The notes under the pieces are model-generated. The model did not search any database, had not been told where the DNA came from, and worked only from the letters and a program-made list of their open reading frames with translations. This document shows positions 38,031 to 51,435 of a stretch of DNA of 64,000 nt, one piece after another. The stretch covers positions 871-64,870 of the forward strand of contig JAHJCH010000171.1 of NCBI GenBank assembly GCA_018813065.1. The letters are read 5' to 3'. The position numbers and the translations under genes are program-made. Source of the DNA: Myxococcota bacterium. GTDB lineage: Bacteria; Myxococcota_A; Bradymonadia; UBA7976; UBA1532. The number at the start of each line of letters is the position of its first letter. The first letter of the stretch is position 1.

Positions 38031-39227
38031 TCAACGAAAAGCGTCGAGGCCGCCAAAAGGCCCCAAGGCGCGATCAAAGACGCCCAGCGTAAAGGCGATG
38101 GCCAGCCCATAGTTGGTCATGGGCACGCCCGCCTCGGCGCAGCGCAGCTGGCGGGCGAGGACCGCCCTGCGGTTCCAGACGCAGCCGCCGCAGTGAACCA
38201 CCAAGGCGTAGGGGCTGAGGTCCTCGGGGAAGTCACGGCCGGACTTGACCTCGATCTCCAGCGCGCCGCCCACATACTGGCGCAGCCAGCGGGGGATCTT
38301 GACCCGCCCGATGTCCTCGGTGATGGGGTGATGTGTACACGCCTCGGCGATGAGCACCTGATCGCCGCTCTTGAGCTGATCGATCGCCAACGCGCCGCGC
38401 ACGAGGCCGCCCAGATCCCCCTTCATCCGCGCGAAGAGGACAGAGAAGGAGGTCATGGGGATCTCCGGCGGGGTGTCGGCGGCGACCTTGAGGAAGGCCT
38501 GAGAGTCGGTGACCACCAGCGCTGGCGGGGCCTTGAGGTTGGTCAGCGCGTGGCGCAGCTCGCGCTCCTTGGTGACGAGGCAGTAGGCGTCGCCGTCGAG
38601 CGCGTCGCGGATGGCCTGCACCTGCGGCATGATCAGGCGGCCCTTGGGCGCCTCCTTGTCGATGGGCGTCACCAGCACCACGCAGGCCCCCGGCGAGACC
38701 AGATCCGAGAGGACGGGCGGGGGGGTGAGCGCCGCCTCGGGGGCCAGCTCGATGAGCAACGCCCGCGTCGCGCCGATCCCCTCGCCCGTGCGCGTGGAGG
38801 TGATGGCGTGCTTGCGCTTGAGCGCCTCCCCCTCAGCGCGTTGGAGATCGGCCTTGTTGTAGATCGCCGCCCAGGGGGCGCCTTGGGCGTCCAGCGCGGC
38901 GGCGAGGCCCGCCTCAAAGGCGCCCCAAGCGCCGCCCTCGGTGACGATCAGCGCCACATCACAGCGCGCCAACGCCGCGCGTGTCCGCTCCACGCGCAGC
39001 GCGCCCAGCGCGCCCTCGTCGTCGATCCCCGCCGTGTCGATGAACAGCACGGGGCCGAGCGGGGCCAGCTCCATGGTCTTCTCGATCGGATCGGTGGTCG
39101 TGCCCGCCACGTCCGAGACGATGGCCACGTCTTGACGCGTCAGGGCGTTGAGCAACGAAGACTTGCCGACGTTGCGGCGGCCAAAGAGGCCGATATGAAG
39201 GCGCAGGGCCTTGGGCGCTTTACGCAT
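38031..39227 (-). CDS. hydF: [FeFe]-hydrogenase maturation GTPase HydF
   Basis: P-loop GRRNVGKSSLLNAL. C-terminal CxH...HCxxC cluster motifs (EACTHH, VVHCGGC). 398 aa. Confidence 0.8.
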   Translation of the reverse strand: MRKAPKALRLHIGLFGRRNVGKSSLLNALTRQDVAIVSDVAGTTTDPIEKTMELAPLGPVLFIDTAGIDDEGALGALRVERTRAALARCDVALIVTEGGAWGAFEAGLAAALDAQGAPWAAIYNKADLQRAEGEALKRKHAITSTRTGEGIGATRALLIELAPEAALTPPPVLSDLVSPGACVVLVTPIDKEAPKGRLIMPQVQAIRDALDGDAYCLVTKERELRHALTNLKAPPALVVTDSQAFLKVAADTPPEIPMTSFSVLFARMKGDLGGLVRGALAIDQLKSGDQVLIAEACTHHPITEDIGRVKIPRWLRQYVGGALEIEVKSGRDFPEDLSPYALVVHCGGCVWNRRAVLARQLRCAEAGVPMTNYGLAIAFTLGVFDRALGPFGGLDAFR

Positions 39228-40638
39228 CGGGTTTCGCCTCGCTCCCCAGGCGCGTGACCCGCTCGGGCTGGGTCAGGGCGTCGAAGTCTTGGGCGCTCAG
39301 CGCGCCTCGCTCAAGCACGATCTCACGCAGGGGGCGCCCCTCGGCCTCGGCGCGGGCGGCCAGCGCCTCCGCGGCCTTATAGCCCAGGGCCCCGGCGAGG
39401 GCGGTGGTCATGGCCGTCAGGCTGCCCTCGGCCAGGGCGCGGCAGCGCGCCTCATCCACCTCCAGGCCATCGAGGCAGCGCGTCCTCAGCGCCTCACAGG
39501 CCCCCGCCAAGAGCTGGAGGCTGTCGAGGAGGGCGTCGGCGATGACCGGCAGGAAGGCGTTAAGCTCCAGATCACCGAGGCTGGCCGCCAGCGTGATCGC
39601 CTGATCGTGGCTGATGACGCGGATGGCCGCGCCGCAGACCGCCTCGGGGATCACCGGGTTGATCTTGCCGGGCATGATCGAGGAGCCCGCCTGGCGAGGC
39701 GGCAGCCGCAGCTCGCCCAAGCCGCCGCGCGGCCCCGAGGAGAGCAGCCGCAGATCGCGCCCGATCTTGAGCAGCGTGCTGGCGAGGGCCTTGAGGATGC
39801 CGCTGACCTCCACGAAGTCATCGGCGTTCTGCGTCGCCTCGACGAGATCCTCGGCGCGGGCCAGGGGCAAGCCGGTGCGCCGCCGCAGGGCCTCGGTGAC
39901 CTGAAAGATATAGCGGCGTGGGGCGAGCAGGCCCGTGCCGATGGCCGTGCCGCCGAGGTTGATCACCCGCAGCCGCTCCCCGCACTTGTAGATCCGCCAG
40001 CGATCCCGAGAGAGCGCTTGGGCGTAAGCGCCGAAGCTGCGCCCCATCGTGGTCAACACGGCGTCTTGGAGCTGCGTGCGCCCCAGCTTAATGACGTGGG
40101 CCCAGGCGCGCTCATGGCCTTGGAGCGCCTCGACCAGGGCGACGACGGCCTCCTCCAGCCGATCGAGGCCCCAGCGGGCGGCGATCCGCAGCGCCGTGGG
40201 GTAGGCGTCATTGGTGGACTGGTGGAGGTTGACGTGGGCCAGCGGGCAGATCGTGGCGTAGTCGCCGAGGGGGTGGCCGAGGCGCTGGAGGGCGCGGTTG
40301 GCGATGACCTCGTTGACGTTCATGTTCGTGGAGGTGCCCGCGCCGCCTTGGAGGGCATCGACGAGGGCGTGATCATCGAGCTGCCCCGCCATGACCTCCT
40401 CGGCGGCGGCGATGATCGCGCCGCCGATCTCCGCCGAGAGGTCGCCGAGCGCCAAGTTGACCTCTGCGGCGGCGGCCTTGACGGCGCCCATGGCGCGGAA
40501 CAAGTCACGGTGGATGGGGCGAGCGGCGAGGGTGAAGTTCTCCAAGGCCCGCGCGGTGTGTACGCCGTAGAGGGCGTCGGCGGGGACGCCGCGCAGGCCG
40601 AGGAGATCACGCTCAAGGCGCTGGGGCGCCTCAGACAT
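39220..40638 (-). CDS. aspA: aspartate ammonia-lyase (fumarate lyase superfamily)
   Basis: GSSIMPGKINPV signature (GSSxMPxKxNP). 472 aa. Embedded between hydG and hydF with overlapping start/stop codons. Confidence 0.8.
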   Translation of the reverse strand: MSEAPQRLERDLLGLRGVPADALYGVHTARALENFTLAARPIHRDLFRAMGAVKAAAAEVNLALGDLSAEIGGAIIAAAEEVMAGQLDDHALVDALQGGAGTSTNMNVNEVIANRALQRLGHPLGDYATICPLAHVNLHQSTNDAYPTALRIAARWGLDRLEEAVVALVEALQGHERAWAHVIKLGRTQLQDAVLTTMGRSFGAYAQALSRDRWRIYKCGERLRVINLGGTAIGTGLLAPRRYIFQVTEALRRRTGLPLARAEDLVEATQNADDFVEVSGILKALASTLLKIGRDLRLLSSGPRGGLGELRLPPRQAGSSIMPGKINPVIPEAVCGAAIRVISHDQAITLAASLGDLELNAFLPVIADALLDSLQLLAGACEALRTRCLDGLEVDEARCRALAEGSLTAMTTALAGALGYKAAEALAARAEAEGRPLREIVLERGALSAQDFDALTQPERVTRLGSEAKPDA

Positions 40639-42040
40639 AGAGATCCCGCGCGCCGCCTTGGATGATCTGCGCCAGGCGCGCCTCGGCGGCCTCCCGTCCC
40701 GTCTTCATCAAGGCCAGCTCCGCTTGGATCAGCGCGTGACCCGCCGCCTTTGTGCGCGGCGTGGCGTAGTCTTCGAGGTACTCAGCCAAGGTAAAGAGGG
40801 CGTTGGGGCCGCAGAACCGCTTAATGAAGCCTGGCTGGGCGAAGGACATAAAGTGCTCGCCGACCCGGCCCAGGCGATAACAGGCCGTGCAGAAGCTGGG
40901 CAGGTAGCCATCCTCCAGCAGCTCCGCCATCACCTCATCGAGGGGGCGCGTGTCGCCCACCTCGAACTGCTCGCGCTCTAGGCGCTGTGCGCCCTCGGCG
41001 GTGTAGCCCCCGATCTCGATGCGCGTGCCCGCGTCGATCTGGGAGACGCCCAGGGCCATGACCTCGCGGCGGATCTCGGGCCGCTCTCGCGCCGTGAGGA
41101 TCAGCCCCGTGTAGGGCACGGCCAGGCGCAGCACGGCGACGAGGTGCTTGAAGTCCTCATCGGAGACGGCGTGCTCGAAGTGGCCATCGACGCCCGAGGC
41201 GCGCTGGATGCGCGGGAAGCTGATGGTGTGCGGCCCGACGCCCAGCGTGGTGTTGAGCACATCGGCGTGCTTGACCAGCGCCAGCGTCTCAAAGCGCCAA
41301 TCGTAGAGCCCAAAGAGCGCGCCGATGCCCACGTCATCGCAGCCGGATTGGATGGCGCGGGTGGCGCTGTCGAGCCGCCAGTGATAGTCCGACTTGGGCG
41401 TGTTGCCGGGGTGAACCTGGGCGTAGGTGGCGTGATGATAGGTCTCTTGAAAGACCTGGTAGGTGCCGATGCCCGCCTCGTGGACGCGGCGATAGCCCGC
41501 CTCATCCAGCGGCGCGGCGTTGATGTTGACGCGGCGGATCTCGCCGTTGCCCTCGCGGATCTGATAGACGCGCTGGACGGCCTCAGCGATGAACTCGGCG
41601 TCATAGCGCGGGTGCTCGCCGAAGACGAGGATGAGGCGCTTATGGCCGCCTCGGATCAGCGCCTTGACCTGGGCCTCAAGCTCATCGGGGTTGAGCGTGG
41701 CGCGCACGGCCTCCTTGTTGGAGCGGCGGAACGCGCAGTAATGGCAGTCGTTACGACAGAGGTTGCCGACGTAGAGCGGCGCGAAGAGGACGACGCGGTT
41801 GCCATAGACGGCGTCCTTGAGCGCCCGAGCGGCGGCGGCGACGCGCTGGCGCTGATGCGGGCTTGAGGCGGCGAGGAGGACGGCGGCCTCCTCCATCTTG
41901 AGGGGTGTCTTACTCGCCGCCCGCGCCAAGATCTCGTCGAGCCGCAGATCGGAGGGCTCTGGGAGGGCGCAGAGGGCGTGGATTTGATCCTCATTGATAA
42001 AATCGTGGGCGCTCGGGCTGAGCGCGCGGGGGAGCTTCAT
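40631..42040 (-). CDS. hydG: [FeFe]-hydrogenase maturase HydG (radical SAM tyrosine lyase)
   Basis: Radical-SAM CRNDCHYC (CX3CX2C) and C-terminal CTAC...C auxiliary-cluster motif. 469 aa. Confidence 0.8.
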   Translation of the reverse strand: MKLPRALSPSAHDFINEDQIHALCALPEPSDLRLDEILARAASKTPLKMEEAAVLLAASSPHQRQRVAAAARALKDAVYGNRVVLFAPLYVGNLCRNDCHYCAFRRSNKEAVRATLNPDELEAQVKALIRGGHKRLILVFGEHPRYDAEFIAEAVQRVYQIREGNGEIRRVNINAAPLDEAGYRRVHEAGIGTYQVFQETYHHATYAQVHPGNTPKSDYHWRLDSATRAIQSGCDDVGIGALFGLYDWRFETLALVKHADVLNTTLGVGPHTISFPRIQRASGVDGHFEHAVSDEDFKHLVAVLRLAVPYTGLILTARERPEIRREVMALGVSQIDAGTRIEIGGYTAEGAQRLEREQFEVGDTRPLDEVMAELLEDGYLPSFCTACYRLGRVGEHFMSFAQPGFIKRFCGPNALFTLAEYLEDYATPRTKAAGHALIQAELALMKTGREAAEARLAQIIQGGARDLYV

Positions 42041-51392: not shown

Positions 51393-51417
51393 TCCGTAAT
51401 TGATTAACTTTTTCTCT

Positions 51418-51435
51418 CTGTGATTCAATTCACAG
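51418..51435 (-). promoter_or_regulatory. Rex operator (cTGTGAttcaatTCACAg) immediately upstream of rex-hyd operon
   Basis: Near-perfect match to the Rex box consensus TTGTGAA-N4-TTCACAA, about 26 bp upstream of the proposed rex start on the transcribed side. Confidence 0.55.

Follow-up and report, generated by a model that had tools for sequence, protein, structure and literature searches.

Trimeric [FeFe]-hydrogenases of the HydABC type have been solved from Acetobacterium woodii, Thermoanaerobacter kivui and Thermotoga maritima (7q4v, 8a6t, 7p5h). In Caldithrix abyssi, rex lies directly upstream of the genes for such a trimeric enzyme in a five-gene operon (Cabys_3675-3679; rex-hydCBA and one further gene), and Kublanov et al. 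2017 (PMC5317091) reported a candidate Rex box, cTGTGAATCAATTCACAt, 38 bp upstream of that rex. A sensory counterpart is recognised by HydDB as group C1, "histidine kinase-linked (putative)", a putative H2 sensor acting via histidine kinases, a class set by sequence clustering and context whose function is putative (PMC5037454). For groundwater Elusimicrobia of lineage V, Meheust et al. described a [FeFe] hydrogenase of group C that carries the ATPase domain of a histidine kinase where others have PAS; a trimeric hydrogenase of group A lies alongside, and Rex is nearby (bioRxiv 10.1101/765248). Finally, aspA almost always adjoins hydF, and its supply of NH4+ for the dithiomethylamine ligand has been demonstrated in vitro (PMC11736057). 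Here we compare with these systems an eleven-gene cluster, rex-hydC-hydB-hydA-hydS::HK-REC-REC::HK-hydE-hydG-aspA-hydF (REC, receiver; HK, histidine kinase), found in a stretch of 64,000 nucleotides (nt) of contig JAHJCH010000171.1 (assembly GCA_018813065.1), which is labelled Myxococcota bacterium. This whole stretch is called the window below.

The likeness to the Caldithrix abyssi operon extends from the order of the genes to the operator. In the window too, rex directly precedes the trimeric hydrogenase genes, and a predicted Rex-type palindrome, CTGTGAATTGAATCACAG, lies 38 nt before the rex ATG at 51380, whereas the Caldithrix abyssi operon as described (PMC5317091) includes neither the maturases and aspA nor the two receiver proteins. 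The adjacency of aspA and hydF is that of the hyd-associated pairs of PMC11736057. We consider it probable that the cluster is a Rex-repressed operon for a cytoplasmic, probably bifurcating hydrogenase of the HydABC type, together with the full set of proteins for H-cluster assembly and an embedded sensor relay. What carries this reading was read directly: the gene identities, their packing, the signature of the sensor, the single occurrence of the Rex box and its conservation in relatives, and a conserved synteny. The compact and complete cluster adds one more case to an arrangement known from other bacteria, and each of its elements is already in the literature, namely HydDB group C1, the Caldithrix abyssi rex-hyd operon, the Elusimicrobia kinase fusion and the aspA-hydF link. 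The initial annotation of this DNA, which had singled out the cluster, is, apart from the H2-responsive control that it predicted, a correct description of a widespread and known arrangement.

Organisation and conservation of the cluster

The cluster consists of eleven consecutive open reading frames (ORFs) on the minus strand (38031..51380), and all those that the initial annotation had claimed for a same-strand cluster at 38031..51435 were present there. The identities it had assigned, a trimeric NuoE/NuoF-type hydrogenase, three maturases, aspA, Rex, a sensor kinase and two receiver proteins, agree with the Pfam and NCBIfam matches. From the head of the cluster to its tail, the genes are (aa, amino acids):

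50748..51380, minus strand: rex, redox-sensing repressor, 210 aa, with Put_DNA-bind_N and CoA_binding domains (Pfam); alternative starts at 51392 and 51428
50278..50751, minus strand: hydC, NuoE-like [2Fe-2S] subunit (PF01257, E 1.2e-48; NuoE/HoxE models match)
48321..50285, minus strand: hydB, NuoF-like FMN/NADH subunit, with Complex1_51K, SLBB and NADH_4Fe-4S domains, two C-terminal Fer4 domains and an N-terminal extension
46592..48307, minus strand: hydA, catalytic subunit of the [FeFe]-hydrogenase, 571 aa, with Fe_hyd_lg_C, Fe_hyd_SSU, Fer2_4, NADH-G_4Fe-4S_3 and Fer4 domains
44598..46592, minus strand: hydS::HK, 664 aa, with Fer4, an H-domain (Fe_hyd_lg_C), a Cx2Cx4Cx16C motif (PF04060), HisKA and HATPase_c
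44217..44588, minus strand: stand-alone receiver protein (REC), 123 aa (Response_reg, E 5.2e-19), conserved beside hydS::HK
43074..44198, minus strand: REC::HK, a REC-HisKA-HATPase_c kinase of 374 aa (Pfam)
42037..43077, minus strand: hydE, radical-SAM maturase (TIGR03956, 287.7 bits, cut-off 254.6)
40631..42040, minus strand: hydG, radical-SAM maturase (TIGR03955, 480.3 bits, cut-off 312.15)
39220..40638, minus strand: aspA, aspartate ammonia-lyase family (NF008909, 593.6 bits, cut-off 510)
38031..39227, minus strand: hydF, maturation GTPase/scaffold (TIGR03918, 531 bits, cut-off 325.55)

Measured from stop codon to next start codon, the junctions are -4 nt for rex/hydC, -8 for hydC/hydB, +13 for hydB/hydA, -1 for hydA/hydS, +9 for hydS/REC, +18 for REC/REC::HK, -4 for REC::HK/hydE, -4 for hydE/hydG, -8 for hydG/aspA and -8 for aspA/hydF; the hydC/hydB junction becomes +19 if the start in the public gene call is taken (hydB then has 645 aa). 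The packing is thus tight throughout, as had been claimed, while the upper limit of 14 bp given for the junctions has to be raised to the 18 nt found between REC and REC::HK. The G+C content of the eleven genes is uniform (0.64-0.71; 0.82-0.91 at third codon positions, GC3) and equal to that of the rest of the window. A horizontally acquired island was considered and rejected, as both the G+C and the GC3 of the cluster match the window.

The synteny was compared in species-representative genomes, of which the best 80 loci were kept (loci are cited by L-numbers). About 37 of these have full-length relatives of the sensor, with 46-59% identity. The order rex-hydCBA-hydS::HK-REC-REC::HK-hydE/G-(aspA)-hydF recurs in metagenome-assembled genomes (MAGs) of at least eight phyla, among them, by their MAG labels, Planctomycetota, Myxococcota, Lentisphaerota, Elusimicrobiota, Ignavibacteriota and Fermentibacterota, so that the comparative check of the proposed order came out in its favour. 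The full order of eleven genes, aspA included, is found in L008 and L013 (MAGs labelled Polyangiaceae), and L003, L014, L025 and L028 are complete save for aspA. Retention of aspA within the cluster by L008 and L013 only, among the related loci, is unlike the usual aspA-hydF pairing (PMC11736057). Of 31 informative loci, 22 have REC as well as REC::HK after the sensor. The Elusimicrobia loci L025 and L028 share the order of the window but differ from it in having hydG before hydE, no aspA, no Rex box at 11 of 14 positions and a sensor with 46-51% identity to that of the window. The window holds the most compact version among the loci compared.

A single transcript for all eleven genes would fit both this spacing and the absence of internal signals. 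On the coding strand, no terminator-like hairpin was detected inside the cluster and the only, weak, candidates lie at the hydF stop; a scan of 37000..52000 for sigma-70-like promoters gave no match inside the cluster or at its head; and a search for sigma-54-like promoters gave none at either place, the loose matches in the window being fewer than expected by chance. Control of the window copy by an NtrC-type regulator was dropped on the outcome of this last search. Rfam at gathering thresholds and ARAGORN gave no match in the window, which excluded the involvement of an RNA element or riboswitch. At the other end, the following feature was found:

38006..38066, minus strand: 3' end of the cluster, where a 14-nt direct repeat and weak hairpin/T-run candidates surround the hydF stop

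A convergent gene on the plus strand (37259..38005, 246 aa, called in the MAG) has its stop 25 nt past that of hydF. The direct repeat, TTTTCGTTGAGCGT (38011..38040, minus strand), is present in two copies with a 2-nt spacer, the first of which holds the hydF stop, and looks like a small duplication of the 3' end of hydF.

A tentative alternative, possible in our view though clearly the less probable, is that the genes form several tightly packed units (rex-hydCBA, hydS-REC-REC::HK and hydEG-aspA-hydF) with promoters inside upstream coding sequence. The relatives lend it some support: REC::HK and hydE are separated by 471 nt in L008 and L013, hydA and hydS by 142-283 nt in L001, L005, L012 and L014, and the order of hydG and hydE is swapped in L014, L025 and L028. 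The gaps between modules are variable and sometimes long and the order can change; evolution thus treats the modules as units that can be separated. It also weighs against a single transcript that promoters may be present within the coding sequence of this genome, which has 67% G+C. In the window itself, however, the modules meet at -1 nt (hydA/hydS) and -4 nt (REC::HK/hydE), junctions that suggest translational coupling, and the coding strand has no promoter-like or terminator-like site inside. We therefore prefer the single transcript as the working description of this copy.

The putative kinase-fused sensor and its relay

When HydS::HK is aligned to solved HydA chains, the cysteine ligands of the H-cluster are retained, with xCP, GPCxxKKxE and CxxC/CxxxC in the place of motifs L1-L3. 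Three other positions are substituted (CpI numbering): C299, the proton relay, is Ala, M353 is Gly and M497 is Leu. The Cx2Cx4Cx16C motif is exact (residues 377-403) and HisKA follows it directly. Land et al. 2020 (PMC8163306) describe the same departures for putative sensory HydS enzymes, in which the relay cysteine is lost and the H-domain is followed by a four-cysteine cluster and then by PAS. The Gly at M353 is shared with HydS of Thermotoga maritima (M2f) and the Leu at M497 with HydS of Thermoanaerobacter mathranii (M2e) (PMC8163306). Both of these sensors, like the one in the window, have lost the C299 relay, carry Cx2Cx4Cx16C and are encoded beside a bifurcating (in the window, probably bifurcating) trimeric hydrogenase; the window sensor differs in having HisKA/HATPase_c in the place of PAS, so that sensor and kinase are one polypeptide. 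No Pfam PAS family matched HydS::HK at E <= 0.001, and it is therefore not an M2f enzyme in the strict sense. From its domain architecture we infer that HydS::HK belongs to group C1 rather than to another C subtype.

These features are not peculiar to the window. In a survey of 34 HydS::HK orthologues from related loci, the motif with the relay position was located in 32, and there the position is taken by Thr, Ser, Ala, Asp or Pro but not once by Cys; motif L2 was located in 32, all of them with GPC; and 32 of the 34 have Cx2Cx4Cx16C. Among the database relatives listed, the best 120 all have the same fused architecture, with 56-60% identity, and some are auto-named [quoted passage not shown]. 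The exact protein is labelled Myxococcota bacterium by NCBI.

The residues of a phosphorelay are complete, with the His in both kinases and the Asp in both receivers. The two receivers have the acidic pocket, Asp, Thr and Lys, with the phospho-Asp within IIDLMM and LLDVKLP, and the kinase core of REC::HK can be aligned to HK853 of T. maritima. The H-box of the sensor is HEVNNPL (45228..45248), with HE[VLI]NNPL in all 32 orthologues where it was found. That of REC::HK is HELKAPL (43707..43727); its orthologues have HELK[AS]P[LI] in 24 of 25 cases and HELQAPL in the remaining one, never Thr or Asn at His+4. Thr or Asn at this position is needed for the phosphatase activity of HisKA kinases. Because the H-boxes of the two kinases differ consistently across orthologues, they suggest that only the sensor kinase would keep phosphatase activity and that REC::HK would not. 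Some 10 kb from the cluster, the window encodes a hybrid PAS-HisKA-HATPase_c-REC kinase (61747..63402, minus strand), which has no evident link to the hydrogenase relay.

No response regulator with an output domain was found in the cluster or among the scanned window ORFs of at least 250 aa. The initial annotation had also predicted H2-responsive control of the same operon, and this part was not supported, as the cluster encodes no output-domain regulator and its head shows no second operator or sigma-54 promoter. In the window, an H2 signal thus does not obviously appear to reach the head promoter. It could be argued that HydS::HK reports another signal, such as the redox state of ferredoxin or the cell, O2 or CO, or that the relay is a mere passenger in the operon and acts on unrelated genes. 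Such a role would suit the two ferredoxin-type clusters and the additional four-cysteine cluster of HydS::HK as well as the lack of a local output connecting it to the hyd promoter; our literature search, moreover, found no biochemical study of a kinase-fused HydS, H2 sensing by kinase-linked [FeFe]-type sensors being putative throughout. We nevertheless think this explanation rather unlikely. All ligands of the H-cluster are kept and the proton relay is lost, the pattern of the characterised sensory HydS proteins (PMC8163306), and hydS::HK almost always adjoins hydCBA and the H-cluster maturases. An H2 sensor remains our preferred assignment for HydS::HK.

A possible natural partner of this sensor came from relatives that lack rex. 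The rex-less Planctomycete loci L005, L010, L012 and L015 have strong sigma-54 promoters (TGGCAC-N5-TTGC, 10-11 of 11 positions) 69-219 nt upstream of hydC, and the lone-sensor loci L021, L022 and L026 have them upstream of hydS. Across both strands of loci L001-L041 (1.28 Mb), the background amounts to 18 sites of this kind. The positions are:

L005: sigma-54 promoter at 5032; NtrC-type regulator at 3307..4746, minus strand
L010: sigma-54 promoter at 3626
L012: sigma-54 promoter at 5225
L015: sigma-54 promoter at 6582
L021: sigma-54 promoter at 2598
L022: sigma-54 promoter at 9391; NtrC-type regulator at 7704..9152, minus strand
L026: sigma-54 promoter at 9839

Five of the sigma-54-type loci have an adjacent regulator of the NtrC type (REC-Sigma54_activat-HTH_8, Pfam). 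A further observation is that nqrA lies downstream in L005, L021, L022, L023 and L026, in the last four directly after the sensor. The NtrC-type and nqrA families were picked by greedy longest-ORF calling and clustering, which was partly spoiled by long antisense ORFs in the high-G+C loci, and were then confirmed with Pfam. A sigma-54 promoter of this type is absent from all 12 rex-headed loci and from the window.

The sigma-54 promoters and adjacent NtrC-type regulators of the rex-less loci suggest that a regulator of this type is what naturally accepts the signal of the sensor kinase in some lineages. In the [NiFe] regulatory systems HoxBC-HoxJ-HoxA and HupUV-HupT-HupR, an impaired hydrogenase signals H2 to a histidine kinase. 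HoxA and HupR are NtrC-type activators working with sigma-54 promoters, as in the rex-less Planctomycete cassettes, but the [NiFe] sensors have an unrelated metal centre and belong to another protein family. Compared with them, the window has a fusion of sensor and kinase and two extra relay proteins, and no NtrC-type regulator or sigma-54 promoter was found in it.

The trimeric hydrogenase, its maturases and the predicted Rex operator

The window encodes the same subunit set, with the same domain architecture, as the solved HydABC systems, differing from them in the lack of HydD. The closest solved relatives of HydA are the electron-bifurcating HydA1 of T. kivui (8a6t, 3.9e-161) and that of A. 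woodii (7q4v), which it matches nearly over its full length; HydA of T. maritima has 645 aa with a C-terminal extension that the 571-aa protein of the window lacks. The H-cluster motifs L1-L3 of HydA are TSCSPAW, MPCTAKKFE and MSCPGGC. L1 (47408..47428) thus has TSCSPAW in place of TSCCPxW, a TSCSP variant that the window protein has in common with the solved A. woodii HydA1 and that is also present in 17 of 19 HydA orthologues from related clusters. By simple alignment, its Ser would fall on the position of a cluster-ligand Cys (C300 of CpI). A literature search for the TSCSP motif found nothing relevant.

HydABC is likely to be electron-bifurcating and of the group A3 type. Schut et al. 2022 (PMC9304861) define the bifurcating family, BfuABC, by the domain set of HydB/BfuB (Nuo51 FMN-binding, SLBB, NuoF 4Fe-4S and ferredoxin-type 4Fe-4S), to which comes the NuoE-like subunit BfuC. 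This set is complete in HydB of the window (PF01512, PF10531, PF10589 and two C-terminal Fer4 domains, 2x[4Fe-4S]), and HydC is the counterpart of BfuC. HydB ends in two CxxCxxCxxxCP motifs, and its N-terminal domain falls within the alignment to A. woodii HydB (residues 45-652). Residues ~45-652 of 654 match the B subunits of bifurcating-type enzymes (9n5u_B, 7t2r_B, 7q4v_B), with E values down to 3e-211. Bifurcation is likely in view of the N-terminal domain of HydB and its C-terminal 2x[4Fe-4S], the predicted sites of additional clusters that non-bifurcating homologues, the enzyme of Syntrophomonas wolfei included, do not have (PMC9304861).

One score points the other way. Among the NCBIfam models, HydA is matched best by NF040763, "NADH-dependent [FeFe] hydrogenase, group A6", with 760.8 bits against a cut-off of 765. 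HydA is only 4 bits short of this cut-off, and a non-bifurcating enzyme therefore has to be weighed, the more so as bifurcation is not provable from sequence alone. That HydABC is an NADH-dependent, ferredoxin-independent hydrogenase of the S. wolfei type is nonetheless unlikely in our judgement, given the N-terminal domain and C-terminal 2x[4Fe-4S] of HydB and its near whole-length alignment to bifurcating B subunits. The bifurcating reading is the one retained below.

Of the proteins that would serve the H-cluster, HydE, HydG and HydF are placed by their NCBIfam models as given above. AspA reached 477.9 bits with the equivalog TIGR00839, under its cut-off of 681.2, and the class II fumarase models gave it lower scores than NF008909. 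Its gene is directly upstream of hydF, with an 8-nt overlap.

Rex has the N-terminal winged helix and the C-terminal Rossmann NAD(H)-binding domain (PF06971, 4.5e-11; PF02629, 2.2e-15), scores 170.6 bits with the NCBIfam subfamily NF003995 (cut-off 126) and can be aligned end to end with Rex of B. subtilis and T. maritima. Its GxGxxG motif is GVGNLG, the same as in B. subtilis Rex, and its recognition helix, ...TASQARRDL, aligns with ...SATIRRDF and ASQIRKDL of solved Rex proteins. The longest ORF starts with a TTG at 51428, within the palindrome. A start at the ATG at 51380 (210 aa) or at 51392 is likelier, which places the box 38-50 nt upstream; the former is the start in the gene calls of two public MAGs with an identical sensor protein and agrees with the point where solved Rex proteins begin to align. 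The features at the head of the cluster are:

51418..51435, minus-strand reading: predicted Rex-type operator, ending 38 nt before the rex ATG at 51380
51440..51468, minus strand: possible promoter, TTGACT (51463..51468), a 17-nt spacer and TAAACA (51440..51445), read by eye and weak

The palindrome matches the Rex consensus, TTGTGAANNNNTTCACAA, at 11 of 14 specified positions. With at most three mismatches allowed, it is the sole match to this consensus in 64 kb (0.56 expected by chance), and the exact core TGTGA-N6-TCACA also occurs only once in the window (0.01 expected). The box begins 4 nt downstream of the putative -10 hexamer TAAACA. The consensus scan did not call this promoter because its -10 hexamer lacks the final T. 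We infer that the box, just past the putative promoter, would stand where a repressor is expected. Among related rex-headed loci, 8 of 12 have sites with at least 11 of 14 positions 39-118 nt upstream of rex, usually the sole such site in ~20 kb of each relative, and two Bacteroidales loci with rex at the tail have a Rex-type site 74-134 nt upstream of hydC. The Rex box that had been claimed for the head of the cluster is therefore backed by its position, its uniqueness, its conservation in relatives and a near-identical published site in Caldithrix abyssi. Predicted Rex control of the cluster is well supported because comparable boxes precede rex in two thirds of the rex-headed relatives.

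Three points weigh against it. No box was found at the 11/14 threshold in the other 4 of the 12 rex-headed relatives (three Elusimicrobia and one Verrucomicrobiota), three flanking positions of the box do not follow the Rex consensus, and the classical CRP-type core is identical to its exact core, TGTGA-N6-TCACA. The last two could mean that a CRP/FNR-family regulator encoded elsewhere has the palindrome as its operator, which is very unlikely given that the site accompanies rex at a fixed distance in unrelated phyla, that the Rex-typical half-site TGTGAA is retained in most copies, that the same type of site upstream of rex has been ascribed to Rex in Caldithrix abyssi (PMC5317091), and that Pfam found no CRP-family gene among the cluster proteins.

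Proposed working of the cluster and its setting

To the observed features, the model we propose adds NADH-dependent derepression, bifurcation, H2 sensing, an order of phosphotransfer and the co-transcription of the eleven genes. While the ratio of NADH to NAD+ is low, Rex would sit on the palindrome just past the promoter and block rex and the genes behind it; on a build-up of NADH, it would leave and the hydrogenase would be made. HydABC would then dispose of NADH and reduced ferredoxin as H2, while HydE, HydG and HydF would build the H-clusters of both HydA and HydS, and AspA would be a local source of ammonium for the dithiomethylamine bridge. The H-domain of HydS::HK would be expected to bind H2 or turn it over slowly, since it is without the proton-relay cysteine. 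Its redox state could pass via the Cx2Cx4Cx16C cluster to the kinase, which would feed a relay of the stand-alone receiver and the receiver-kinase, with a final acceptor presumably encoded elsewhere, outside the window.

Several other features of the window were recorded. GatE (11388..13274, plus strand) and GatD (13274..14656, plus strand) are adjacent and exceed the cut-offs of their NCBIfam equivalogs (485.8 vs 456 and 519.2 vs 310 bits); GatDE is an archaeal-type Glu-tRNA(Gln) amidotransferase, and the contig is labelled Myxococcota and has bacterial genes (RpoD-type sigma factor, LolA-like, CreD). The stretch 21383..26455 has a G+C of ~0.50-0.52, against ~0.67 elsewhere in the window, and may be acquired DNA; within it are a 595-aa ORF without a family match and, side by side, two genes for Ser/Thr protein kinases (24172..25173 and 25163..26455, both on the minus strand). 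A protein of 1283 aa (16159..20010, minus strand) has no Pfam match and strongly matches the NCBIfam "acidic double-disulfide repeat" model (1.1e-63). The homologue of LarA, the nickel-pincer cofactor racemase, at 6878..8059 (plus strand) stays far under every NCBIfam cut-off (206 vs 500), with Lar_N matched in part only.

A bolder proposal, which we regard as improbable, is that HydS::HK, REC and REC::HK form a dedicated H2-driven phosphorelay that has spread with the bifurcating hydrogenase in many phyla and accepts either of two exchangeable heads, one made of the Rex gene and its box, the other of a sigma-54 promoter and an NtrC-type regulator. In the Rex-headed versions, which have no local DNA-binding acceptor, the relay may then modulate Rex or modify the hydrogenase or the maturases post-translationally. 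If this were true, H2 partial pressure and the NADH/NAD+ ratio would be integrated on one enzyme system, a mode not yet described for hydrogen sensing. The contrast between the heads, a Rex box without sigma-54 promoter in one and sigma-54 promoter with NtrC-type regulator without rex in the other, may help to locate the missing output of the relay.

Our results confirm published patterns rather than altering them. Electron-bifurcating hydrogenases govern the amount of H2 that fermenters release, and in this uncultured bacterium the regulator, the enzyme, the putative sensor relay, the maturases and the presumed ammonium supplier lie within 13.4 kb, a very compact natural construct that could be cloned whole.

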